DNA of 64,000 bases from Myxococcota bacterium (GTDB lineage Bacteria; Myxococcota_A; Polyangia; Nannocystales; Nannocystaceae): assembly GCA_039028615.1 (NCBI GenBank), contig JBCCHT010000058.1, positions 10,268 to 74,267 on the forward strand. The letters run 5' to 3'. Under the pieces are notes generated by a model that searched no databases, had not been told where the DNA came from, and saw only the letters and a program-made list of their open reading frames with translations. Below are positions 45,412-61,526 of this stretch, one piece after another. Each line of letters opens with the position of its first letter. Position 1 is the first letter of the stretch. The translations under genes and the position numbers were made by a program.

Positions 45412-46584
45412 GTGACGCCAGAGGAGATCGGTCAGCTTCAGCACCAGCTGCACCTGATGCAGCAGGAGAACGAGCTGCTTCGCCAGCAGCTAGGTCAACA
45501 CGAGCAGACGAAGCAGACCCGAGCCGATCGGCGCAACAAGGTCGTGCGGGGTAGCGGCCGACTGCTGATTCCGCTGCTCGACCGCCACAAGGTCGTGCGC
45601 TCCTTCGGCTCCCTGGCCGAGACCGCGGCCGACTTCTCGGGTCCGCGCGATGCCTGGCCCGAGCGCGACCGCCTGCTTGCCGACGCCCGGGGCTTCCTCG
45701 AGGCCCTCGTGCGCTTCGCCGTGCGGCGACGGACCCTGCTGCTCGTCTTCTCGCTGCTCGCCTCGCTGATCCCCATCATTCAGATCTGGCTGGTCGTCCA
45801 GCAAAACGAGATCATCCGCAACCAGAACGAGTTCTTCGAGATCCAGGTCTACGACATCGTGGCCCGCTCGATGACCCAGGGCGATCGCAACGCCCGGCTG
45901 ATGACCGGCGCCCTGCTCTCCCGCGCCGAGCCGGCGTTCCTCGCGGGCGTCATCGAGGAATCCTTCGAGCCCAACGTCACCGGTCTGTTCCGTGCCGAAG
46001 CCGTCGAGGCCCGCACCCGCCGGCTCGAGGACGCCGCCTTCCGCGGCTACCTCGCCCAAGCCGTCGTGCGCAACGTGCAGAAGCAGGTGAGCGCCAAGGG
46101 CGTGACCGCCGAAGTCACCCTCCAGTCGGTGCCCATGCTGCGCTCCATCGTGCGAGACGCGGGCGATCGCGTCTACCAGGTGCTGCGCCTCGGCGAGAAC
46201 GCCAAGGGCGTCGACGACGAGCTCGCCGAGCAGGTCGACGGCTACCTCGTCAAGGCGGGCGAGGCCATGCGGGTCTACGCCCGGCTGGCCCGAGACAAGG
46301 GCACGATCGAAGAGTTCTACAAGGACATCGAGCCCTACTTGCGGCGCGTCTCCGGCCTCTCGCTCGAGGGCAACCACTTCCGCAAGGCCCACGTGTTCGC
46401 CCTCGAAGCGCTGCTCTTCGAACTCGCGGCCGAGCCCGAGCCCGGCGATCCCGAGGTCGACCTGCAAAAAGCCGGGCTCACCCCCGAGGAGGCGCATGCC
46501 AAGGGCCTGGAAGCCCTCAAGAGCGGTGTTGGTGGTGACGACGTCGACTGGGACGGCCTCGCCAAGCAAATGGAGCCCTCGTGA
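45412..46584 (+). CDS. Hypothetical single-pass membrane protein with N-terminal coiled coil
   Basis: Q/L/E-rich N-terminus, TM LLLVFSLLASLIPIIQIWLVV, GTGA overlap with the next gene. Confidence 0.75.
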   Translation: MTPEEIGQLQHQLHLMQQENELLRQQLGQHEQTKQTRADRRNKVVRGSGRLLIPLLDRHKVVRSFGSLAETAADFSGPRDAWPERDRLLADARGFLEALVRFAVRRRTLLLVFSLLASLIPIIQIWLVVQQNEIIRNQNEFFEIQVYDIVARSMTQGDRNARLMTGALLSRAEPAFLAGVIEESFEPNVTGLFRAEAVEARTRRLEDAAFRGYLAQAVVRNVQKQVSAKGVTAEVTLQSVPMLRSIVRDAGDRVYQVLRLGENAKGVDDELAEQVDGYLVKAGEAMRVYARLARDKGTIEEFYKDIEPYLRRVSGLSLEGNHFRKAHVFALEALLFELAAEPEPGDPEVDLQKAGLTPEEAHAKGLEALKSGVGGDDVDWDGLAKQMEPS

Positions 46585-47903
46585 GCATGGCCGTGCGTTC
46601 CTTCGGTTACGGCCTGCTCCTCCTGACCGCCGGCCTGCTTGCCTGCACCCCCAAAGCGGGGGGCACCACCGTCACGCCGCAGCCGCAGCCCGAGCCCGAA
46701 CCACAGCCGGCCGTCGTCGAGGCCTTGGGTGACGAGGCCTTCGTGCAGGCCCGAGGCTCGGGGGCGACCGAGCAGGAGGCCTACGCGGCCGCCACCGCGT
46801 CGCTCGCCGAGGCCCTATTCGGCGACGCCCGCTGGGCCACGCTCGTGCCTCTCACCGTCCACGGACCCGATGCCGACCTCATGCACGCGGGCCGCACCGC
46901 CGAGGGCTTCGAGGCCGTCGTCGGCCTTACCCGTGCCCGTGCGGCTGGAGTCCTGTCCGCCTTCGAGCACGGCGAAGTCACCTTCGAAGGTCCCGCCGTC
47001 TGGCGTGATGCCGTGCTCGCCTATCGCCGGGCCCACGTCGCCGCTCAGGCCTGTGCCCGCCGCGTCGAGCTGTTCGAATCCGAGTGCTCCATCGAGACCG
47101 CCGATGCCGATGCCGCCGTCGCGCGCTTGGGCGAGGGCTTGGTGCTCGTGTCAGCCCACGACGGTGGCGTCCCCGTCACTGCCGATGGACACCTGCTGCG
47201 GACCCCCGCCGTCGTCGCCATCTGGGGCGGCGTGCCCGTGGCCGACCTCCCGCTGGTCGTCACCGCACCGCCCGAGCTTGCGTGGGTCCAGCCTCAGCTC
47301 AAGACCGATCTCGCCGGCGGAGCCGTCCTCGGCCAACCCGAGCCCCAGCCCGCCACCTGGGCTCCCGTCACCGTTCGCGTCGATGGCCAGGCCCTGCTCG
47401 GCCCCGCGGGCGCCGAGATCTTCAAGACCGAGCTCGCCCTCGAGCCTCGCTCCGTCGGTCCTCGTCGTTGGACCCTCGCCCTCGACGGCGGCAAGACCCA
47501 GGGCGCCGACGAGGCCCGCAGCGTCATTCGCAATCTCATGGGTGAAGCCGGCTACGGCGATCCCGTCTCCATCGGGGCCGGCCCCGCCAGTGCCCTCACC
47601 CAGGCTCCCGCCACCAAGCGTGAAGCCGAAGCGCTCGCCCTGGGCGATGCCATGGGCGGCCGCCTCGACGTCGTCCTCGTGCTGACCTACGGCACCCGCT
47701 TCGCCAGCCGCATGGGCGGCAGCCGGGTCTGGTACGAAGCCGAAGGCGAGCTGGACGTCCGCGATGTCTGGACCGGCAAGACCCTTGCCACCGCGAAGCG
47801 GAAGATCGAAGCCGACGGCGTCGGCGAAGCGCGAGCCGACAAGGCGGCGCGGCGGAAGCTGGCCAAGACGTTGATCGAAGAGGTGCTGGGCAGCCTGCCG
47901 TGA
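46581..47903 (+). CDS. Hypothetical lipoprotein
   Basis: Lipobox LLAC; coupled to the upstream gene. Confidence 0.8.
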   Translation: MSMAVRSFGYGLLLLTAGLLACTPKAGGTTVTPQPQPEPEPQPAVVEALGDEAFVQARGSGATEQEAYAAATASLAEALFGDARWATLVPLTVHGPDADLMHAGRTAEGFEAVVGLTRARAAGVLSAFEHGEVTFEGPAVWRDAVLAYRRAHVAAQACARRVELFESECSIETADADAAVARLGEGLVLVSAHDGGVPVTADGHLLRTPAVVAIWGGVPVADLPLVVTAPPELAWVQPQLKTDLAGGAVLGQPEPQPATWAPVTVRVDGQALLGPAGAEIFKTELALEPRSVGPRRWTLALDGGKTQGADEARSVIRNLMGEAGYGDPVSIGAGPASALTQAPATKREAEALALGDAMGGRLDVVLVLTYGTRFASRMGGSRVWYEAEGELDVRDVWTGKTLATAKRKIEADGVGEARADKAARRKLAKTLIEEVLGSLP

Positions 47904-47965: not shown

Positions 47966-50900
47966 CTAGCCCGCGTCGACAAGCTGCCTCTCCATTTCCT
48001 TCGCCCTTTGGTAGCACGCGATGCCCAACGCGTGCTCCATATGGAGCGCGCGGTCGTTGAAGTCATCGTCGAGGCAGTGGAGACCTGCGATGAGCTGGTG
48101 ATACTCGCGCTGGCCTTCTACGATGCCGAGCCCGGCACGCAGCTTCCTCAGCGCCTCGTTCGCGAGCGATTCGAGCTCGTCGGAGAGACCCCGAGACGAC
48201 TTCATCCGGCTGAGTACGAAGCCTCCGATCGTCAGTCCCACGGTCATGGGCGAGAAGTGGCCCGGTGAGTCGAACAGTGACTCCAGCCGTAGCAACTCTC
48301 GAGGGTAGCGAAGGTCCGCGGGTGACTGCTCAGCTTTACGCCTCGTCGCGTGATCCACTAGCCCACGGACAGCAACCATACGGTAGTACATCGGATACGG
48401 AAAACGGTCGATCATGTGCTCCAGCACCGTCCGTGGATTCGGCTTGCCAGCGTTAGCCTGCATGATGCCCTGGCCGACGAGCCACTGCCGTATCGTGGCC
48501 CTCGTATCGACATGGTCCCGACTTTTGGTGTCCTCTTCCGCAAGAAGCTCCAGCAGAAACCAAACGACCACCACCGAGATCATCGAGCGGTGGGACCTCC
48601 ACTGCTCCTTTCCGTCGACGAGAGAGCCCGCGACGAGGATGCGCCGTAGGCACCGCCCCAAAGTCGTCTTGGCCACTTCGACCGAGGGACGCAACGCTTG
48701 AGCGAGTTCCCCATTTTGCATCTCCGACGCGGCCGCGAGGCAATAGATCGAGTACGCAAACCGTACTCCGGTTCGCACCATCGTGCTCGCGTCACCATGC
48801 TGCTCCATGACCTCCATGGCGAGTGCGCTGGTCTCATCATATCGATGAAACGTGCCCTCTTTTTCCTGAAGGCAAGGGACCTCCTCGAGAATGAGCTGCG
48901 CCGCGTTCCAGCGCCCCCACTCTTGTCGCGAGCCAATGCCTCTGAGCCACTCGAGGAGGACTGTGATACTGGCGTTCTGAGAGGTGCCGCCGGCCCAGAT
49001 CTCCGGTTCACAGGGATCGAGCTGCGATAGCCACAGCTCGCTCACGGCGACGAGCAGTCTCTCTACGCGAAGCGAGATCGCCCGCGGCAGGACTCCAGAG
49101 GAGTCGAGCGGAGCGCCGAGTTTCTTCTCGCTGCTCATGGCTCGATGCCAGCAGAAGCTCCGGATGTCGTGCATCGCAAGACATGCGTGATAGAGTGCTC
49201 TTTGACGGTATCCGGTCTGTATGCTTCCGGACGCGCCCTTCCAAAAGTAGAGGTCCACTGCCTGCGCATGGACGTCGGACATCGCGAGGGCGAAGTTGGT
49301 GTCTTCCGGCTGACGCGGATCCAGGTAATTCTCGTTGGGGATTTCGCTCCCTTTTTTCACGAAGGGAAGGTCTTTGCGTAGCGCCCGAAGCTCCCTTTCA
49401 ACCATGGAGACGCTGTTCTCCACACCGACCGAGCTCTTCTCCGCGAGCCATGCCTCCGCGAACAGAGGCAGATAAATGATGCGCCAGTGTTTCAGGCTGT
49501 CGATGGCGCTGACCCTCGGGTCTGCTCCGCACAGGTACGCGTCCGACATTCGATTGCCGAGGGTACGGGCATCACGATAGATGCCGATCGCGCGCTCGTG
49601 GTTCTTGGCCCGCTCGTACGTCATCCCGATCTGGAGCATCAGCCGGATTCGTGCGATGCACCATGCGCCCCGGTTCTGGAAGAAGCGACGCTGTGCAGAG
49701 CGCCAGTTCTCCCCTTCGGGCGCGCTCGTACCATGTTGCTCGTCGAGGTAGTCGATCGCCTTCCCATAGTGATAGCGGGCGCGCTCGAACTCTTGGTCGA
49801 AGTCGCAGAGTTCTCCGAGCGCGCTATGAAACTCCTGGAGATGAGCATCGTCGCCTTTCGAGTTCGCGATGCGGGCTCGGTATTGGTCTTTGAGGCGCTG
49901 TGTCTCGTCGAGCGTGAAGTTGTACGACGCCATCTCCGCCTGAGACGCTCGTGAGAGGTACGCGACCTCGGCGGCCATGTCGCTTCGAAAGCGAAAGCTG
50001 TACATTCCGTTCAGGATCGGGTGAAGGTACTCGCCGTTCCAGTCCTCGACGAACTCGGTGACCATGTCTCTGAGGTCTGGGATCCGGTGGATATGCGACA
50101 GCTCCTCCATGCGCTCCAGGCTGCTCCAGGAGAACGCACGCCGATGGAACTTCGTCACGAAGTCGACCAGCTGGAGTAGGGACCGTACGGCCTTATCGTC
50201 ACGGCCGGCCAGTCGTTGCTCGAATCGGTTCGCCAGGCGGCGATAGACCTCCGACGTCATCCCGACCCGAAACCGATCGATGTCGCCGAAATAGAGCACG
50301 TGCGGCCCCGTGAACTGGCCCCAGCGAATGCGTTTGTCGTCGATGATGCGTCCCGCCGAGCGAACGAACCCTTCGAAGAGAGCATCGAGCTGCTTCGGGC
50401 CACCCCGACTGCGAAACGTGAGGTATTCGATGACCTCTCGCCCGAACTCCTCCGACCAGAGTTCCTTTTCGGGGAGGCTGTGCTCATTCGCCTCACGCGG
50501 GCCGACCTCGAGGACACGAAAGTCATTGCTCGTCCCGTCTGCGCCGGCCTCGGTCCGAGCCGACAGCGGCGTTACGACGGGATTTTGTACATAGACTGGC
50601 AGCACGGAGTTGCGATGGCCGAAGACGATGTCATGCCGTTGCTGCCAGTGGCGAGCCCTCTTCGACGATCGGGCCAGCTGTGCCTGCACGTACGCGAGGG
50701 TCCCGTCCGTCATCCTCTTGCCGATGTCGTCGACCAGTAGCGAGGGAATGTAGATCTCCGCGTCGAAGATCGTGCTGAGTAGCGGGCGTTGGGCCGTCCG
50801 ATCGGCGAGCCATTCATCGTGCAGGTTGCGCCCGCCGATGAAGATGAACCGCGCCGGAGCACTCGACATCAGGCCCTTGAGGTTGGCCAGGAGGCGGAGG

Positions 50901-53401
50901 GTACGCTCGGTACGCTCTCGCTCCGTGTCTTCGGTCGTCGCCTTGTCGCGCGGCAGGGGCTGGATCTTGTCGACCTCATCGAAGATGAACGTGATGTCGG
51001 GCGAGGGAACGCTGATCTCCAGCCCGCCCGGCAAGGTGATGTGGTCGCGATGAAAGTCGTTCAAGATGTTCATCAGCGCTTGCTCGACCTCGACTGGACT
51101 CGCTGCCTTTCGGTGATACTCGATCTGCGTGTTGGGAGACGTGACTCGGAAGAGTCGGGGCGAGAAGGTGACGGTGCCCGGGTTTCTTTGCTCTTTGATT
51201 GGCCCAGAGAGGTGCCGCAGCTGTTTTCCTAGCCGGCGATATGTGCTGGCATAGAACGACGAACCGAACTTCACGCCAGCGAAGTGGAATCCGAAGGCGG
51301 TGGCCAGCCATACCAGGGCCAGGTATCCGACAGGATCGGTGGCTGGTCTTCCTTTGTCGTTTCGCGGGAAGAATGTGGTCGTGAGTAGATCGCCGGTTGG
51401 AAGCTCAGGAGAGACTCCTTCAGATCGCGAATCCGTAAGTGGTTTTCCGAAGGCGCCTCCGAGTGCCCTGGTCTCGAACTCGGTATAGAAAACCGCTTCG
51501 CCTACCGTTAGCGCCACTGTTGTTACTGCGGTAAGCCACACGAGCCTGGAAATGAGACCGATGCCGCTTCGCCATGACGCGAAGTTCTGACGGAACTGCT
51601 CTCGGAGTTCGGACATCATCATCGAGATGACTTCACCGTGCTCCAGGGTGTCGCAACCCAGCGATGACTTCACGACGATCGTTGGGCGCCAAGACGACAT
51701 CGAAGCCCAGAAGAGCGTGGCGGAGGCCATTTTTCTATGGCGTATCTGAAGGTTGAGTTCGTTGCCCTGCTCGGAAGTGGCTCTTGGTGTCTGCCCGGAG
51801 AGCGGCTCGTTGGCATTGTCCGCTCGAGCGCCTGCGTAAGGATGAATGATCCACTGGTACTCGAAAGCGGCGAGCACGAGTAGGCACACCAGCATTCCGA
51901 CGATCCACTGTTGGCTGGTCTTGGCGGACCACAGATAGTCGTACGGGTAGGTTTCGTACAGCGGCCGGAGGAGGAGGAGGGTCGCGATCGATATCGTGGC
52001 GCCCGTCAAGAGAAGGGAGATTTGCGGCGACGAGTTGAAGTGGAACCACGGCGTTTTGGGAACACACTGGGCCTTCTTTGCTGTCGCTTTGCTCTGTCCG
52101 ATGGCACTTGCCGCCATGGACGGCAAGCGTGCGCTGATGTTGATCGGAGTGCTCGTTCCTCGCTCGATCGGTGTCTTCGATTTCTTGAGGACGAACGGGT
52201 AGTTGTTGCTTTGCCGATATATGGTGGTGACGGCCGGGTGTTTGATTCGTCTCGTAACCCCAAAAAGGACGGCGACGAGGACGGGGGTGAGGGTAAGGAG
52301 GTGCCAGCTTGCGAAACGACCCCGGTCGCCCGAAAAATGGACGCTGGCGTAGATAAACAGGAAGGTGATGGCGACGCTCGTGACGATCGTCAACTTCGGC
52401 CAGTTCCATAGGCGGTGCCAGCCGGGCCAGTGTCGAAAGGAGTGGCCATCGGGGGTTGGGAGAAGTCCGGAGAGCCAGAACGTGTCGTGAGCGCGAAACA
52501 GCGCTGCTACGCAAAGGCCTGTTCCGAAGCCGAAGCTCGAGATCGCGATCGCGTTGTCGCTGGTGGTGAACGTGAACACGATGACGTTCACCAGTACGGT
52601 GAACGCCAGCAGGATCTGGCACCAGCTCGGTTGGATACCGAACCGAAGGCCACGACGAGAGGCGCTGGGGGATAGGGGGTCGATGTCGACTCGGTATTTC
52701 TCGGCGATCGAGAGCGCTCGATAGACTCCAGCGGTCGTTCCGCAGATCGATATGGCCACCCAGGGGACCTTGAGCGGCTCGATGGCCAGCCAAGGGGCAG
52801 GAACGTAGCCGGCGGCGCAAACCACGATGATGGCCAGGAATGCAACGAGGGCCAGAACACGCGGCCAGCATTCAGTCCACCGCTCGAAGTCGATCGCCAG
52901 TGCGATCGCCAAGGTCCGAGTCGAATAGTAGAGGGGGAGGAGCAACGTGGCGACGACCACGAAGAGGACGAGCCATTCGAGGATGACCAAGGCTGTCGGA
53001 AATTCTTTCTCGTGACTGTCCGAGAAGAACTCGCTGAGCCAGAACTCCAGGAGCTGCGACGTGAGCAGGAAGAAGGTCAGTATCGCGGCGATGGTGCAGG
53101 CGAACAGCAGCAGGTCGAGCGGGCGGCGACCGGCCTTGCTTCGAACGAAGCGCTCGTACACCTCGGTTTCGTACTGCCCGAGCACGAAATCCGTGAAGGT
53201 CGTTTTCCCAGTGCCGCGATAGCCTGTGATCAAGTACGAGCCGTGGGTGCTCGCACTGCGGAGAAGATCGAGCAGTCGGGCTCTCTGACGCGCACGGCCA
53301 ATCAGTGTCTCGTTGGCAGGCGGTGGTGCAGAATTGGAGCCTTCATAGAGACCGAGATCGGAGGCATAGATCTTGTTGGTTGGGGAGCGATCGTCAGTCA
53401 T
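47966..53401 (-). CDS. Giant multi-pass membrane P-loop NTPase (KAP/STAND-like) with TPR-like C-terminus, ~1811 aa
   Basis: LIGR, Walker A GYRGTGKT, many TM helices, Walker B ITFIFDEVDK, RFIFIGG, SRGGP, TPR-like LGELCDFDQEFERARYHYGKA and IGMTYERAKNHERAIGIY. The start codon is an estimate. Confidence 0.85.
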   Translation of the reverse strand: MTDDRSPTNKIYASDLGLYEGSNSAPPPANETLIGRARQRARLLDLLRSASTHGSYLITGYRGTGKTTFTDFVLGQYETEVYERFVRSKAGRRPLDLLLFACTIAAILTFFLLTSQLLEFWLSEFFSDSHEKEFPTALVILEWLVLFVVVATLLLPLYYSTRTLAIALAIDFERWTECWPRVLALVAFLAIIVVCAAGYVPAPWLAIEPLKVPWVAISICGTTAGVYRALSIAEKYRVDIDPLSPSASRRGLRFGIQPSWCQILLAFTVLVNVIVFTFTTSDNAIAISSFGFGTGLCVAALFRAHDTFWLSGLLPTPDGHSFRHWPGWHRLWNWPKLTIVTSVAITFLFIYASVHFSGDRGRFASWHLLTLTPVLVAVLFGVTRRIKHPAVTTIYRQSNNYPFVLKKSKTPIERGTSTPINISARLPSMAASAIGQSKATAKKAQCVPKTPWFHFNSSPQISLLLTGATISIATLLLLRPLYETYPYDYLWSAKTSQQWIVGMLVCLLVLAAFEYQWIIHPYAGARADNANEPLSGQTPRATSEQGNELNLQIRHRKMASATLFWASMSSWRPTIVVKSSLGCDTLEHGEVISMMMSELREQFRQNFASWRSGIGLISRLVWLTAVTTVALTVGEAVFYTEFETRALGGAFGKPLTDSRSEGVSPELPTGDLLTTTFFPRNDKGRPATDPVGYLALVWLATAFGFHFAGVKFGSSFYASTYRRLGKQLRHLSGPIKEQRNPGTVTFSPRLFRVTSPNTQIEYHRKAASPVEVEQALMNILNDFHRDHITLPGGLEISVPSPDITFIFDEVDKIQPLPRDKATTEDTERERTERTLRLLANLKGLMSSAPARFIFIGGRNLHDEWLADRTAQRPLLSTIFDAEIYIPSLLVDDIGKRMTDGTLAYVQAQLARSSKRARHWQQRHDIVFGHRNSVLPVYVQNPVVTPLSARTEAGADGTSNDFRVLEVGPREANEHSLPEKELWSEEFGREVIEYLTFRSRGGPKQLDALFEGFVRSAGRIIDDKRIRWGQFTGPHVLYFGDIDRFRVGMTSEVYRRLANRFEQRLAGRDDKAVRSLLQLVDFVTKFHRRAFSWSSLERMEELSHIHRIPDLRDMVTEFVEDWNGEYLHPILNGMYSFRFRSDMAAEVAYLSRASQAEMASYNFTLDETQRLKDQYRARIANSKGDDAHLQEFHSALGELCDFDQEFERARYHYGKAIDYLDEQHGTSAPEGENWRSAQRRFFQNRGAWCIARIRLMLQIGMTYERAKNHERAIGIYRDARTLGNRMSDAYLCGADPRVSAIDSLKHWRIIYLPLFAEAWLAEKSSVGVENSVSMVERELRALRKDLPFVKKGSEIPNENYLDPRQPEDTNFALAMSDVHAQAVDLYFWKGASGSIQTGYRQRALYHACLAMHDIRSFCWHRAMSSEKKLGAPLDSSGVLPRAISLRVERLLVAVSELWLSQLDPCEPEIWAGGTSQNASITVLLEWLRGIGSRQEWGRWNAAQLILEEVPCLQEKEGTFHRYDETSALAMEVMEQHGDASTMVRTGVRFAYSIYCLAAASEMQNGELAQALRPSVEVAKTTLGRCLRRILVAGSLVDGKEQWRSHRSMISVVVVWFLLELLAEEDTKSRDHVDTRATIRQWLVGQGIMQANAGKPNPRTVLEHMIDRFPYPMYYRMVAVRGLVDHATRRKAEQSPADLRYPRELLRLESLFDSPGHFSPMTVGLTIGGFVLSRMKSSRGLSDELESLANEALRKLRAGLGIVEGQREYHQLIAGLHCLDDDFNDRALHMEHALGIACYQRAKEMERQLVDAG

Positions 53402-54365: not shown

Positions 54366-56372
<2,007 letters not shown>

Positions 56373-56461: not shown

Positions 56462-57319
56462 ATGCCTCGTGTGCGACGCGCGACTTCGAAGATCGGCCTC
56501 GTAGGGGCTCTGGGAGCGTTCCTGGGGCTATTGACGCTCGGGGCCTGCGACGAAGAGACGGGCAGCAGCGAAGACCGAGCCTCCATGGAGGAGCGGATCG
56601 GCGACGTGCTGCCCGTGGTGGTGCCGCAGGACGCCCCGCTGCCCGCCGACCGGGCGGAGATCCTTCGCGAGCTCGCGCCCCTGCCCAGTGACGCGCTGGT
56701 CGTGGTGTTCGAGGTCCAGGGTCCGGGAGGACTCGAAGGCACGCTCGAGGTGCTGGCGCGACCGGGCGGCTATCGGCGGGAGAACTGGACGCTCGAGGTC
56801 CCGCTGGGACGCGAAGGCACGCGGCGCTTGGCCGGGTCGACGATTCAGACTCCCGATGGCGTGTGGATGGAAGGCACCGCGCCCGAGACCTTCACGTCCT
56901 CGCCCCTCGGTGCTCTGGCGGATGCGTACCTCGAGCTCGACGAAGAGCATCGCCGCGAGGTGATGGACAACTTGCGAGGCCTGCGATCGACGCTGGCCGA
57001 GGCTCGCGGCAACGAGCTGGCCACCCCCGAGAAGATCCTGGGCGTGCCGTGTCACGACGCTCGGGTCGCGACCATCGACATGTGTCTGTGGGAGGCGACC
57101 GGTCTGCCGCTGCGCTACGATAGCGAAGGTCTGAAGCTACGCGCGCTCAACATCGACACGAAGGTGAGCATCGGCGAGCACGCGTTCGACTTGCCCTTCG
57201 CGACGAGCGGCGACGCCAACTTCGACGCCGAGGCCGCGCTGGCCCGACTCGCCGAGGGCGATCTCAGCGAGCTCGCGCCGCTGCTGCATCCCGGCTTGCG
57301 GATGCCGCACGCGGTCTAG
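56462..57319 (+). CDS. Hypothetical lipoprotein
   Basis: Lipobox LGAC; C-terminal half loosely resembles LolA/DUF4412 folds. Confidence 0.7.
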   Translation: MPRVRRATSKIGLVGALGAFLGLLTLGACDEETGSSEDRASMEERIGDVLPVVVPQDAPLPADRAEILRELAPLPSDALVVVFEVQGPGGLEGTLEVLARPGGYRRENWTLEVPLGREGTRRLAGSTIQTPDGVWMEGTAPETFTSSPLGALADAYLELDEEHRREVMDNLRGLRSTLAEARGNELATPEKILGVPCHDARVATIDMCLWEATGLPLRYDSEGLKLRALNIDTKVSIGEHAFDLPFATSGDANFDAEAALARLAEGDLSELAPLLHPGLRMPHAV

Positions 57320-57398
57320 GCTCCTCGCGTCGGCCCACCCTCGATCGCTCACGGACGCGGGGGCGGCTTTCCGGTATGGTCTGCGCCGGACGACGCCC

Positions 57399-57770
57399 AT
57401 GTCGGAGACACGCATTCAGAGCTTTGCCGAGTTTTGGCCCTATTATATCGGTGAGCATCGGCTGCCGGTTTGTCGGGGACTGCACTACTTCGGCACGACG
57501 ACCGCCATGGCCACCGCGATCGCGGCCGTCGTCACCGCGACTCCGCTGCTGTGGATCCTCGTGCCCCTCGTCGGCTACGGGCCCGCGTGGATCGGGCACT
57601 TCTTCCTCGAGAAGAACCGACCGGCGACCTTCAAGTACCCGCTGTGGTCGCTGATGTCCGACTTCAAGATGCTGAGCCTGGCCGCGCGCGGAAAGATGGG
57701 CGACGAGGTCGTGCGCCTGTACGGCAGCCGCAGCCCCAGCGCCAACGCCCCGCTGCTCGCCACGCGCTGA
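57399..57770 (+). CDS. DUF962 / Mpo1-like membrane protein
   Basis: FAEFWPYYIGEH, LHYFGT, GYGPAWIGHFFLEKNRPATFKYPLWSL. Confidence 0.92.
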   Translation: MSETRIQSFAEFWPYYIGEHRLPVCRGLHYFGTTTAMATAIAAVVTATPLLWILVPLVGYGPAWIGHFFLEKNRPATFKYPLWSLMSDFKMLSLAARGKMGDEVVRLYGSRSPSANAPLLATR

Positions 57771-58200
57771 CGGCCGTCGGCGACCGGCCGAAAACACGAA
57801 GACTCCACACGTTTCGATGTTGCGCGAAGTTGTCACCTGGCAAGTTCGCCCGTCGACTCGATGCGGCAATTTCATTGCCGGTCTGTGACCAGGTCGACGC
57901 ATCGGCGGGTCATGCTGACCGAGCAATCAACGGATGCGATGGGTGCCATCAGCGGGCGCGATCATCGATCTCGTTCGGGTGATCCATTACCCGTTGGGGA
58001 CGGTTTCCGACGATCCAGACGGGATTCGAGCCCGTACTGCATTCGAAAGAAAAACGACGCATCGCGACATGTCGGGTGAAACATCACCGGCGTTTCACCT
58101 TTCCAAACTTTATCGACTTTACGTTGGCAACCGTCGACCGTCTCGATCGTCGTTAAGTAGTGAGGGCCAGGGTATTGGCCCCGCGGAGGTTCGCGCCCCC

Positions 58201-58851
58201 TTGATCCCCGCTCCCCCCTTGGTATCCGGCTCCGAGCCCGTTTCCCCCGACGGGACGGAGCCGGACGCCCCCGTTGTTCGTCAACGAGAGTCGTCCAGCG
58301 CTTCCCATCGCGCGCCCTTGTCCGTCCGACTCGAGCGCCACGCCAGCCTCACCTTGGCCGCGCTCGGGCCCGAGTGCGCGGGGTGGATCGGCGACTACCA
58401 GCATCACGCGGGCGAGGGATCTGCGCTCGGCTTCCTCGAGTTCGTCATCGCCCACACCGGCGAGCACGTGCTGCTCAGTCTCGCGCGCTTCGAACGCGCG
58501 CTGCTCGTGGCTCGGTACGCGCGTGATCGCGAGGACCCCGACACGAACCTCGCGCTTGGGCCTCGGCTGTGCCTGCATCCTGCCGCGCGCACCATCGACC
58601 TGCCCGGTCCCGCCGACCAAGTGATCGCGGCCGTCTCGCTCGGTCTCGACGTCCTGCCCTACGCCGGTTGGCCCGTGCTCGTGGCGCCCGGCCTGCCCAC
58701 GCTATGGCGCAAGGCTTCGCCCATCGAAGACGCCCTGTGCACGTGGCTCACTCGCCCGCGCAACACGAGCGAAGTGCTCGCCCGCTTCCCCGGCGGCGAG
58801 CACGTCCTTCCGTCGCTGCTGGCCGCGCGCGCGCTCGTCAGTCGCGGCTGA
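58201..58851 (+). CDS. Hypothetical protein, loosely like DUF692-partner (HvfC/BufC-type) domains
   Basis: Protein-like from about 58320 (LSLARFERA...LHPA...LVAPGLPTLWR). The start codon is uncertain. Confidence 0.5.
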   Translation: MIPAPPLVSGSEPVSPDGTEPDAPVVRQRESSSASHRAPLSVRLERHASLTLAALGPECAGWIGDYQHHAGEGSALGFLEFVIAHTGEHVLLSLARFERALLVARYARDREDPDTNLALGPRLCLHPAARTIDLPGPADQVIAAVSLGLDVLPYAGWPVLVAPGLPTLWRKASPIEDALCTWLTRPRNTSEVLARFPGGEHVLPSLLAARALVSRG

Positions 58852-58880
58852 GCGCGGCGTGCCGTGCTCAGCTGGGGCCT

Positions 58881-59666
58881 TCAGGCCTCGATGCGCACGA
58901 GCAGCGCGGTGATGTTGTCGTTGCCGCCCGCGTCGTTGGCCTGTTTGACCAGCGTCGTCGTGGCGGTATCGATGCTCGAAAAGCGGGTGGCGGTGGCGAG
59001 CATCGTCTCGTCGTCGAGCATGCCGCACAGACCGTCGGAGCACAGCAGGAACACGTCGTCGCGCTGATACTCGTCGACCACGATGTCCACGTAGACCTGC
59101 TCGGCGAGCCCCAGCGCGCGCACGACCACGTTCTTGTGCGGGAAGTTCTCGACCTCTTCGCCGCTCATTTCCTTCATGCGGCGATAGTCGTTGAGCAGCG
59201 AGTGATCTTCGGTGAGCTGGGAGATCGTGCCGCCGCGGATCCGGTACACCCGGCTGTCGCCCACGTGCCCGATATAGAACCGGCCCTGGTGGAAGAACAT
59301 CGAGTCGACGGTGCAGCCCATGCCCTTTTTGGAAGGGTCACTACGCCCCGTCTGGAAGATCCGCGTGTTGGCCAGCTTCACCGCGGTGCTCATGCGATCG
59401 CGCTCCGCGTGCAGCTGGGGTAGCCGAAAGGGCCACGAAACGGGCGGGTCGGCCGCGGTTCGGCGGTAGTACTCGTCGATGGTCTGCACGGCGATCTGGC
59501 TGGCGACCTCGCCGCTGGCGTGACCGCCCATACCGTCGGACACCACCGCCAGCGGCATGTCCTCCGGGACGAGGAAATTGTCCTCGTTGTGGTCGCGCAC
59601 TCGGCCGATATCGGTCACGCCCGAGAAACGCACGCGGAACTGACCGTCACGGAAGCTGATGCTCAT
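58881..59666 (-). CDS. PP2C-family Ser/Thr phosphatase
   Basis: TDIGRVRDHNED, DGMGGH, HVGDSRVY, LCSDGL, GGNDNIT. Confidence 0.95.
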   Translation of the reverse strand: MSISFRDGQFRVRFSGVTDIGRVRDHNEDNFLVPEDMPLAVVSDGMGGHASGEVASQIAVQTIDEYYRRTAADPPVSWPFRLPQLHAERDRMSTAVKLANTRIFQTGRSDPSKKGMGCTVDSMFFHQGRFYIGHVGDSRVYRIRGGTISQLTEDHSLLNDYRRMKEMSGEEVENFPHKNVVVRALGLAEQVYVDIVVDEYQRDDVFLLCSDGLCGMLDDETMLATATRFSSIDTATTTLVKQANDAGGNDNITALLVRIEA

Positions 59667-59783
59667 GCCCCGTCAACGGTACCAAGGGGCGGTAGGCGTC
59701 CACCAGCACCCTCGCCGGGCCGCCCCGCACGACCGCTTCCGGGCCGGAATGCGGGTTCGACCACGGGCTGCTACGCTGCGCGG

Positions 59784-61526
59784 GTGAGCGACAGCGCGAT
59801 CGGAGCGCAGGGAACCCAGCAGGTCAACCTTGCCCAGGTCAGCGTCCCGCGGCTCCTGTTCGCGTTGCTTCGTCAGCGCTTCACCGGGCGGCTGTTGGTG
59901 CAGCAACCCCCACCCCACATGGGCAACCGCGGCGTGTGGTTCCGGGGGGGCATGCCCTTGTTCACCGACTGGTCTTCACCACCCGACGTGCTGGGCCAGG
60001 TGCTCGTTCATTCGCGCACCATCGATGAAGAACAGCAGCTGCGCGCGCTCGAAGCGATGGCCGCCGACGGCGGCCTGCTCGGAGCCCACCTCGTCAGCCA
60101 AGGGGCGCTCGATCGGGCGCGCCTGCTCGAGGGGTTGCGGCGGCAGTGCGAGCGCAAGCTGGTCAAGCTCTTCGCGCTGCGGGCCGGGCAGGCCCACGTC
60201 GTCATCGGTGACGCGCCCGAGATCGAAGCCGACCTGCTGCCCGTGAATGCCCTGCGGTTGATCCGGGCGGGTGTCAGCTCGATCTTCGATCATCAGCGCA
60301 TCCACGACGAACTCGGACCCATCGTGCGGGCCACCGTTCAGGCTGCGCCCTCGCTCACCAAGTATCGCGCCCACTTCATGTTCCCCGCCGCCGACGAGCC
60401 CATGCTCGACGCGCTGGTGAAGGGCACCACCGTGGCTCAGCTCGGTGCGCTCAGCAACGCGCCCGACCGCGCCGTGCAGCTGGTCTACACCCTGTGGGCC
60501 TGCCAGATGTTGCGGGCCGACACCAGCAACGTGGCCCCCGTCGCCGAGCAGTCGGCAGCTTCCGCGGCAGCTCCTCCCGCTCCGGCAGTACCCGTCGCTC
60601 CGGCAGCTCCCGTCGCAGCTCCCGCTCCGGCCGCTCCCGCGGCCCCCGTCGCATCGGCGCCTCCCAGCCCATCGCCGGCCGTACCGAAGCCAGCCGCCGC
60701 AGCGGTGACCGCCTCCGCCGACGATGACGACGACGATCGGTTCATCGTGGAGCTGCGCACCCTCGAGTCGCGCATCGAGCAGGGCGATCATGCCTTCGAT
60801 CTCTTCGGGCTCGAGCTGTCCGCCACCAAGCGTGACCTTCGAAGGGTCTGGGGCGACCTCAGCCGCAAGTTCCACCCCGATGCCTTGAGCGCCTCCGGTC
60901 GCACCCATCTGCGCGATCGAGTCAGCAGCGTCTTTGCGGCGCTCAGCGAGGCTCACCAGATCCTCGGCGATGCCGAGCAGCGCCAGCAGCTCCGCGAGTC
61001 CATCGAAAAGGGCGAGCACACGACCACCACCGACGGTCGCGATGCCACTGCCCAAGCCCGCGCCGTGTTTCAGAGCGAGCTGCTGGCCAAAGAAGCCGAC
61101 AAGCTGCTGCGCGCCAACAAGTTCGACCGAGCGCTCGAGCGCTACCGCGAGGCGGCCACCTACAACGCCGAAGAGCCCGACATCAAGGCCGCCACCGCGT
61201 GGTGCGAGTACCAGGTCTCCGGCAAGGACACGCCCGACAAGACGGCCGCGCGCGACAAGCTCTTCGCCGTCATCGAAGAGTCCCCCCGGATCCCCCGCGC
61301 CCACTACTTCCTCGGCTTCGTGCTCAACGACCTCGGCAACCCGGCGGCGGCCATCGATGCCTTCGGCAAGGCCGTCGAGCTCGACCCCCGGCTCATCGAC
61401 GCCGAACGCCAAGCACGAGCGCTCAAGATGAAGATGGGGCGCTCCCCCGACAAAGGCGGCAAGCCCAAGTCCAAGGACAGCAAAGGGGCGTTTTCCGGGC
61501 TCCGGGGTTTGTTCGGCAAGAAGTAG
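59784..61526 (+). CDS. DUF4388-like, J-domain and TPR protein
   Basis: N-terminal RFTGRL...VWFRGG..LGQVL; KFHPD J-domain motif; C-terminal TPRs. Confidence 0.88.
   Translation: MSDSAIGAQGTQQVNLAQVSVPRLLFALLRQRFTGRLLVQQPPPHMGNRGVWFRGGMPLFTDWSSPPDVLGQVLVHSRTIDEEQQLRALEAMAADGGLLGAHLVSQGALDRARLLEGLRRQCERKLVKLFALRAGQAHVVIGDAPEIEADLLPVNALRLIRAGVSSIFDHQRIHDELGPIVRATVQAAPSLTKYRAHFMFPAADEPMLDALVKGTTVAQLGALSNAPDRAVQLVYTLWACQMLRADTSNVAPVAEQSAASAAAPPAPAVPVAPAAPVAAPAPAAPAAPVASAPPSPSPAVPKPAAAAVTASADDDDDDRFIVELRTLESRIEQGDHAFDLFGLELSATKRDLRRVWGDLSRKFHPDALSASGRTHLRDRVSSVFAALSEAHQILGDAEQRQQLRESIEKGEHTTTTDGRDATAQARAVFQSELLAKEADKLLRANKFDRALERYREAATYNAEEPDIKAATAWCEYQVSGKDTPDKTAARDKLFAVIEESPRIPRAHYFLGFVLNDLGNPAAAIDAFGKAVELDPRLIDAERQARALKMKMGRSPDKGGKPKSKDSKGAFSGLRGLFGKK

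Follow-up and report, generated by a model that had tools for sequence, protein, structure and literature searches.

A membrane-integrated NTPase with STAND-type domain order in a Nannocystaceae bacterium, a possible solitary sensor-effector against invaders

NTPases of the STAND class are switches in which an inducer drives ADP/ATP exchange and oligomerization. They are defined, according to PMC6468293, by the order nucleotide-binding domain (NBD), helical domain, winged-helix domain (WHD), arm and sensor, with a terminal effector "generally" present; in PH0952, as described there, a sensor of tetratricopeptide repeats (TPR) caps the NBD at the tip of its initiator-specific motif (ISM), the region in which STAND autoinhibitory contacts are made. 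Another design places membrane helices within the NTPase domain itself. According to PMC13552941, KAP NTPases whose fused tails are of unknown kind confer protection from phage, and PMC13001434 presents the anti-phage protein Tmn as a decameric membrane hub that couples ATP turnover to Mg2+ export, with plasmolysis upon infection, and that combines a conserved core with variable repeats. PMC8195603 refers to KAP solely as a replacement of STAND domains. The present study concerns a gene at 47966..53401, on the minus strand of a 64,000-nucleotide stretch (the window) of a Myxococcota genome from the Nannocystaceae (contig JBCCHT010000058.1), and its 1811-amino-acid (aa) product P0001. The protein and its family are KAP/Tmn-like in topology and STAND-like in domain order, and by the tests applied are not established as members of either. 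The leading explanation, which we hold tentatively, is that P0001 is a solitary, horizontally spread, membrane-integrated sensor-effector of STAND architecture, comparable to Tmn and Avs and most likely directed against phage or other invaders.

The initial annotation of the window had proposed an ATPase domain split by a multi-helix membrane insert, and the split proved to be real: it recurs in 256 of 304 family proteins, which hold both Walker motifs at a spacing of 227-1186 residues (median 753) with 1-16 helices in between. The reading frame of P0001 is intact, ending at 47966 and remaining open up to 54160. Its start is placed at the ATG at 53401, because homologues begin about 55-80 aa before Walker A and the in-frame stretch upstream lacks coding bias (G+C content by codon position, 0.62/0.69/0.68). 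An artefact or a fusion of two genes was considered and is ruled out by the single open frame together with the recurring architecture. No promoter- or terminator-like site was found upstream of the gene, and its surroundings show no sign of element ends, only short repeats at chance level. Searching by tblastn gave no paralogue in the same genome, and none of the RNA datasets listed carries this DNA. A marine metagenome run does contain it and may be its source.

All six motifs quoted in the annotation were recovered (the features located here and below share the minus strand of the gene). The N-terminal half of the NBD (53201..53305) comprises the hhGR motif at aa 33-36, read as LIGR (aa 33, 53294-53305), and the Walker A sequence GYRGTGKT (aa 60-67, 53201-53224); Pfam AAA_16 covers aa 33-115 above cut-off (E 9e-9). 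A strand-helix remnant of the ATPase fold opens with RPTIVVKSSLG (aa 572, 51656-51688) and corresponds to strand 2 and the helix at the ISM position (aa 572-608, 51578..51688; strand 574-580 and helix 588-608 in the AlphaFold2 (AF2) model), with a mean pair identity of 0.38, where the inserts on either side reach 0.19-0.20. The Walker B sequence is ITFIFDEVDK (aa 803-812, 50966..50995); its D808, E809, D811 and K812 are invariant in 42 of 42 aligned proteins. The gap between the Walker motifs, earlier given as about 730 codons, is as large as supposed and amounts exactly to 743 residues. Strand 4 of the model (50828..50851; RFIFIGG at aa 851) presents the sensor-1 arginine R858, an arginine in 41 of 42 proteins, and a candidate arginine finger at family position 871 is arginine in 39 of 42; P0001 has glutamine there and arginine at 872. 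The lid, or helical domain, is marked by R-S-x-G-x-P-K (aa 993-1003, 50393..50425; YLTFRSRGGP at aa 993), with G1000 in 42/42, P1002 in 38/42 and K1003 in 40/42 proteins, and with modelled helices at 983-998 and 1002-1011. By its sequence the motif can be read both as the STAND GxP and as the sensor-2-like P-[KR] of KAP/AAA+ proteins. P0001 is a divergent member of its family, departing from near-invariant residues at 770, 871, 603, 1159 and 1406 and keeping both Walker motifs.

The distant halves are predicted to meet in one fold. The AF2 model of aa 1-1150, computed from 40 alignment rows (pTM 0.72, mean pLDDT 70), aligns over its residues 15-1043 with aa 17-278 of the Cdc6/Orc1 structure 2qby in the VIA fold search (Z 14.4, rmsd 4.2, 245 residues aligned); the three cytoplasmic pieces are thus modelled as one additional-strand catalytic E (ASCE) domain with a lid, in agreement with the proposal that the two Walker halves share a nucleotide-binding domain. 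Further VIA matches to the core are TnsC (Z 12.3-12.9), RdrA (12.3), ZAR1 (11.8), MalT (11.7) and Avs3 (10.9), so that RdrA-type and STAND folds tie within 1 Z. RdrA of RADAR, Cdc6/Orc1 and TnsC (Z 12.3, 14.4 and 12.3-12.9) are the closest solved folds for the reassembled core, at 11-17% identity; they differ in being soluble, in acting with partner proteins or on DNA targets, and in having neither membrane inserts nor a matching TPR tail. Besides RdrA, the VIA matches listed include no KAP or Tmn chain, an absence that carries no weight as a test. Foldseek with the same model returned no match at E<=0.001 in PDB or BFVD, and profile searches of the PDB with the whole alignment, the lid-WHD part or the Walker B part gave nothing significant.

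Behind the lid, the predicted order of domains matches that of STAND proteins. A second AF2 model (aa 781-1811; pTM 0.83, pLDDT 79) predicts a winged-helix-type domain at aa 1069-1152 (49946..50197; pair identity 0.50), assigned from secondary structure only: three helices (1069-1085, 1092-1101, 1110-1121) are followed by a β-hairpin (1126-1138) and a helix (1140-1152), with pLDDT mostly 74-93. For this segment no row of the VIA search aligned as WHD, and the profile search of the PDB was empty. The arm, or first TPR hairpin (aa 1153-1215, 49757..49945; pair identity 0.51), bears a near-invariant NFTLDE, found in 250 of 261 proteins, and leads into a TPR-like α-solenoid (aa 1216-1811, 47969..49756), the putative sensor, whose middle part is variable (0.21). 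In VIA the solenoid matches TPR proteins, 5o01 for instance (Z 13.0, rmsd 4.3, 232 aligned), with Z values of 10-13, which are easily attained by helical repeats. Of the C-terminal elements named in the annotation, the TPR part is borne out by the VIA matches and the winged helix is suggested by secondary structure, and the models give P0001 the layout NBD, helical domain, winged-helix-type domain, arm and TPR. Near its end the solenoid carries an acidic motif, LxDDFNDRxxH (aa 1777-1787, 48041..48073; 218 of 261 proteins), a candidate autoinhibitory latch. Complex prediction of aa 1645-1811 against aa 781-1225 scored 0.59, compared with 0.00 for the best control; the runs agreed in at least 65% of contacts and the partner pLDDT was at least 73. 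Of 157 solved pairs 116 attain the score mark, as do 2 of 215 mismatched ones, and 18 of these solved pairs and both mismatched ones score 0.60 or under, hence the prediction weakly suggests that the acidic motif may latch the solenoid onto the core.

The annotation had counted a dozen or more hydrophobic helices in two blocks around the strand-helix remnant. By a Kyte-Doolittle scan, the stretch from one Walker motif to the other contains 12 hydrophobic 19-mers (11 at 1.5 or above, one at 1.36), ten ahead of the remnant and two after it. Block 1 (aa 95-518, 51848..53119), with 10 predicted helices, lies between the Walker A helix and strand 2; block 2 (aa 620-712, 51266..51544), a two-helix hairpin with an outside loop, lies at the KAP insert position. 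The AF2 model of aa 1-1150 places helices at the predicted membrane segments, and Lys/Arg counts alternate across the loops as the positive-inside rule has it; from this sequence pattern, all ATPase pieces would be expected on one, cytoplasmic, side of the membrane. On the outside, block 1 has only short loops of 4-23 aa, for which neither profile searches nor the ESM Atlas, which returned nothing for block 1 as a query, gave a sensor family. In the 189 of 261 proteins where strand 2 could be placed, block 1 is hypervariable at 0-14 helices, and block 2 is nearly constant, having two helices in 141 proteins, one in 37, three in nine and none in two. These counts weigh against the large block as the internal membrane effector that had been proposed. 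Block 1 is unlikely to be a conserved effector, given that it is among the least conserved parts of the protein, ranges between 0 and 14 helices and is missing altogether in some full-length relatives; only the two-helix hairpin can play that role.

Set against the described systems, the family shows a mixed affinity. It resembles Tmn in being encoded by one gene with no conserved operon, in holding membrane helices within the NTPase domain with the Walker motifs lying next to each other on the cytosolic side, and in a conserved core followed by a long α-solenoid tail with variable middle repeats. Tmn has two helices, a coiled-coil arm, ARM/HEAT repeats and a median length of about 1270 aa in clade I, whereas P0001 carries 12 helices split between two inserts, together with a winged-helix-type domain and TPR repeats; PADLOC, searched for a Tmn/YobI profile, reported no family at E<=1 for P0001 and none at 1e-25 for four relatives. 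With KAP NTPases (PF07693; PifA, Kidins220 and the EF_KAP proteins of PMC13552941) the family shares the two-helix insert between strand 2 and Walker B, the P-[KR] of the lid and a sporadic distribution. It differs by the additional insert ahead of strand 2, by a Walker A of the form GxRGxGK (259 of 261 proteins, GxWGxGK in none) and by a Walker B of DE[LIVM]DK rather than DDLDR. No protein among 24 tested with PF07693 rose above cut-off (best 18.4 bits, cut-off 20), and in the genome of P0001 the model finds three other genes, not this one. These are classical KAP NTPases (G000 C3, C5 and C31, L073-L078; frames of 873, 990 and 1338 aa) with GxWGxGK, strand 2 some 35-56 residues past Walker A, DDLDR, TPRxxK in the lid and, in two of three, two helices after strand 2, the insert position that the family shares. 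Of the suspected KAP kinship, the topology therefore stands and the sequence signatures are absent.

The resemblance to STANDs with a TPR sensor (PH0952, MalT and Avs; PMC6468293 and PMC13581612) comprises the order of NBD, helical domain with GxP, winged helix, arm and TPR, the hhGR motif before Walker A, the sensor-1 arginine and structural matches at Z 10.9-11.8. The family departs from them in an NBD that, in P0001, is broken by about 650 residues of inserts, in a basic residue behind GxP, in R/K at the WHD-histidine position (assigned by eye), and in having no N- or C-terminal effector domain. No NACHT, NB-ARC or nSTAND model matched the family proteins tested above cut-off. The family has no curated model: AAA_16, over Walker A, is the only Pfam entry above cut-off, and PADLOC and NCBIfam give none. 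That no enzymatic effector had been recognized earlier accords with Pfam and NCBIfam, which identify no terminal effector domain in P0001. A class I S-adenosylmethionine (SAM)-dependent methyltransferase is fused behind the C-terminal motif in three proteins (P0042, P0046, P0059) among 120 homologues listed.

Searched with the C-terminal 1031 residues of P0001, the clusters formed at 50% identity yield 1018 matching representatives at E<=0.001, and 405 at 1e-30. Scanning genomes with the single sequence found nothing; the alignment retrieved 46 loci from Myxococcota, Acidobacteriota, Pseudomonadota, Nitrospirota, Bacteroidota and Calditrichota, cultured carriers being Sorangium cellulosum So ce56, Plesiocystis pacifica, Octadecabacter dasysiphoniae and Shimia ponticola. 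The ESM Atlas offered unnamed clusters at 0.96-0.97 and one set at 0.95 with KAP_NTPase on 14% of its members. Mean pair identity over 41 proteins is highest in the winged-helix segment (0.50, with K1084, H1086 and R1111 invariant) and the arm (0.51), followed by 0.46 from Walker B to strand 5, 0.32 at the C-terminus, 0.21 in the middle repeats and 0.19-0.20 in the inserts, including the membrane segments. Two distant full-length relatives, L081 (a 1734-aa frame, L081:7343-12544) and L082 (1853 aa, L082:7970-13528), keep core and tail and have zero helices between the Walker motifs; Walker B of L081 is degenerate, with serine replacing the catalytic glutamate. Soluble relatives of 540-550 aa (L079:4938-7799, L052 and L053, from three genomes of one genus) keep only the NTPase part with the same Walker signatures, and at L079 the gene immediately upstream encodes a RavA-like AAA+ protein. 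Homologues at L012, L031 and L046 appear split into two or three frames by frameshifts, decay or assembly error. In a quick tree of 41 rows the proteins group mostly by phylum, with five Myxococcota scattered and P0001 on a long branch. The family is rare and scattered and apparently undescribed: no description was found in the literature searched, and twelve accessions and six names or motifs are absent from seven supplements of PMC13581612, whose three largest tables, outside this check, may list members. Its parts are known; their combination, the insertion at two sites and the series of 0-16 helices appear to be undescribed.

Rarity was evident in every set of genomes sampled, which agrees with the expectation that orthologues are not syntenic core genes. 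Strong matches to P0001 occur in three of 36 genomes of its taxonomic family, among them one of five in the genus, and in the phylum four of 400 genomes gave a match, one strong and three distant, with at most eight candidates scored per genome. Around three other carriers the counts are 1/150, 2/80 and 1/300, so that the frequency across samples is 0.3-8% of genomes, many of which are incomplete. The P0001 gene has a G+C content of 0.603 against 0.683 for its genome, where none of 406 long open reading frames (ORFs) is as low. Among the loci with at least 6 kb of flank, kin included and hence not all independent, the family gene lies below its flanks in 36 of 37 (median -0.057) and is lower at third codon positions in 33 of 37. 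Extreme rarity and low G+C content fit genes of biological conflict better than genes of physiology. In genomes G001 and G003 the slot beside the upstream-flank gene is empty, this gene being directly adjacent to the DnaJ/TPR gene; in G005 the slot holds, within about 1.3 kb, a gene for a 1304-aa CHAT-nSTAND1-Ser/Thr kinase (L067:7700-11614), so that two unrelated NLR-like genes occupy one variable site. As genes of this type are common in myxobacteria, the occupancy at G005 may be a coincidence. Compared with G001, G003 and G005, the block 56462-61526 is inverted relative to the gene at 46581-47903, and the NTPase gene sits at the rearranged junction.

The anatomy obtained by computation, that is, the ASCE domain with intact catalytic motifs, the lid, the winged-helix-type domain, arm, TPR solenoid, hairpin and block 1, supplies the parts of a possible sensor-effector; beyond it we infer each step, oligomerization and anti-phage action included. 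At rest, the solenoid would be folded back with its C-terminal acidic helices latched on the core, much as PH0952 and MalT have their NBD capped by the TPR sensor. A cytoplasmic trigger, probably a phage protein, would bind the variable middle repeats and open the latch, and nucleotide exchange would then allow the NTPase domains to form a ring. The ISM lines the axis of AAA+ rings, and because of this the hairpins would be expected to gather at the centre of a membrane hub. The output might be loss of ions, burning of ATP or both, stalling the infected cell as has been described for Tmn, with block 1 acting as an expandable anchor or scaffold and not as a conserved effector.

Several observations weigh against this sensor-effector, the first being the gene neighbourhoods. 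Pfam assigns the 94 nearest neighbours mostly to metabolism and signalling, i.e., to housekeeping; those recognized also include a single type I restriction enzyme, two transposases and an RHS protein. PADLOC, which covered 441 of the 450 neighbour ORFs at a threshold of E<=1e-8 for the first 118 and of 1e-25 thereafter, reports specific hits within 5 kb at only five of 46 loci: a type I restriction enzyme (L042), CARF-HEPN-mCpol (L034), SoFic (L026) and the candidate models PDC-S01 (L012) and PDC-S70 (L021), without which three of 46 loci remain. The 13 neighbours of P0001 in the window gave no specific hit. Against the published null of 0.0153 these counts correspond to p = 0.0007 (five loci) or 0.033 (three), values obtained with a different tool than in PMC13581612, on truncated loci and with no matched control. 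That study classes a protein as Avs on defence-gene proximity at p<=1e-4 or on a known effector domain; since both values miss the 1e-4 bar, the association falls short, and the enrichment in defence islands that had been anticipated reduces to a weak, marginal and at best suggestive one. The CARF-HEPN-mCpol gene (L034:14920-16431), from a Nitrospirota genome, is full-length and is separated from the homologue by 1.4 kb. Hits beyond 5 kb, to a SIR2-type protein (L004), an HNH protein (L007), a SEFIR domain (L017) and type II/IIG modification genes (L026, L034), were left uncounted, and those to Ser/Thr kinases, sigma-54 AAA+ proteins, UvrD and SNF2 helicases, OmpA-like, ABC, radical SAM, GlgB, cold-shock and RmuC proteins were dismissed as generic domains. 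In favour of a solitary gene, by contrast, the lack of a partner noted earlier extends to the family: all-against-all comparison of 513 crudely called ORFs, from which the caller missed some genes in AT-rich loci, revealed no shared neighbour family beyond generic ones.

Horizontal spread and membrane output are likewise called into question. No match was found in 72,556 plasmids and 50,697 phages; the grouping of the tree by phylum fits old lineages as well as fast transfer; and L004 and L005 share three downstream genes, hemB and hemL included, so one lineage keeps a fixed site. With membrane segments sharing only 0.19-0.20 identity, no conserved pore lining is evident, and for L081 and L082, which lack the helices altogether, a membrane output is impossible. 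The relatives without membrane helices, the missing pore lining and the housekeeping neighbours together keep alive the alternatives of a receptor and of a DNA-binding protein.

The strongest alternative, which we consider unlikely on balance, reverses the direction of signalling. The variable polytopic block would be the sensor, responding to a damaged envelope, a lipid, a foreign membrane protein that has become inserted, or cell contact, and, grafted beside the P-loop helix and the ISM, would throw the NTPase switch directly, and the conserved winged helix, arm and TPR as output would bind a cytoplasmic host target. Block 1 ranks, in length and sequence alike, with the most variable parts, as specificity domains do, and winged helix, arm and C-terminal motif are conserved like the Walker B region or more; the ISM region is where, according to PMC6468293, STAND autoinhibitory contacts lie. 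The three methyltransferase fusions could represent an enzymatic output, and the housekeeping neighbours also count in its favour. Opposed to this are the short outside loops of block 1 with no sensor-family match, the lack of a regulated operon or partner, the rarity and base composition considered above, and the middle repeats, which are as variable (0.21) as the membrane block. In its most specific form, to which we assign a slightly smaller likelihood still, the alternative describes an NLR-type switch working as a one-chain transmembrane receptor: an expandable polytopic domain, grafted at two sites of the NBD, would sense a membrane event and flip the nucleotide-binding oligomerization domain (NOD), with the clamp of winged helix, arm and TPR as output. 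If true, it would constitute a one-chain receptor class for which the literature searched holds no precedent.

Less probable again, and by a clear distance, is a membrane-tethered DNA-binding ATPase, like Cdc6/Orc1 or TnsC, in which the winged helix binds DNA so as to hold or inspect incoming or chromosomal DNA at the membrane. The top fold matches are indeed Cdc6/Orc1/ORC and TnsC (Z 11.8-14.4), and the winged-helix segment is highly conserved with its three invariant residues. However, the match to 2qby stops at its residue 278, model residue 1043, ahead of the winged helix; what comes after the winged helix is, as in STANDs, an arm with a TPR solenoid; and no nuclease or transposase partner was found. 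Initiators use the ISM on DNA, whereas the ISM of P0001 leads into membrane helices. Least probable of all is that the single chain works as an ATP-driven transporter or flippase through its 12-helix membrane domain and has no relation to immunity, for although a modal helix number of about 10-12 is reminiscent of transporters and the catalytic Walker B glutamate is kept, the helix number varies from 1 to 16 across the family at 0.19 identity, neither a profile (best E 0.14) nor a fold match was obtained, and relatives without membrane helices exist.

Two further genes of the window were noted in passing, most of their profile matches lying below cut-off. Cysteine-rich repeats and a MYXO-CTERM-like tail characterize the multi-copy protein encoded at 54366-56372; a MYXO-CTERM-type neighbour of this kind and the nearest homologues of P0001 mark the host as a myxobacterium. 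The gene at 59520-61526, divergent from a PP2C phosphatase gene, encodes a segment resembling a cyclic di-GMP motif, a J domain and TPRs.

Lastly, the family has importance in joining two defence designs known separately, the membrane helices inside the NTPase of KAP and Tmn and the NOD-arm-TPR switch of STAND and Avs proteins. Profile and neighbourhood screens recognize defence STANDs by an uninterrupted NTPase footprint and by a defence-island setting; with a gap of 230-1190 residues between the Walker motifs and a solitary position among housekeeping genes, the family would therefore tend to escape both. With helix numbers running naturally from 0 to 16 on a single conserved core, the family allows a test of whether effector, sensor or anchor is the role of the membrane part.

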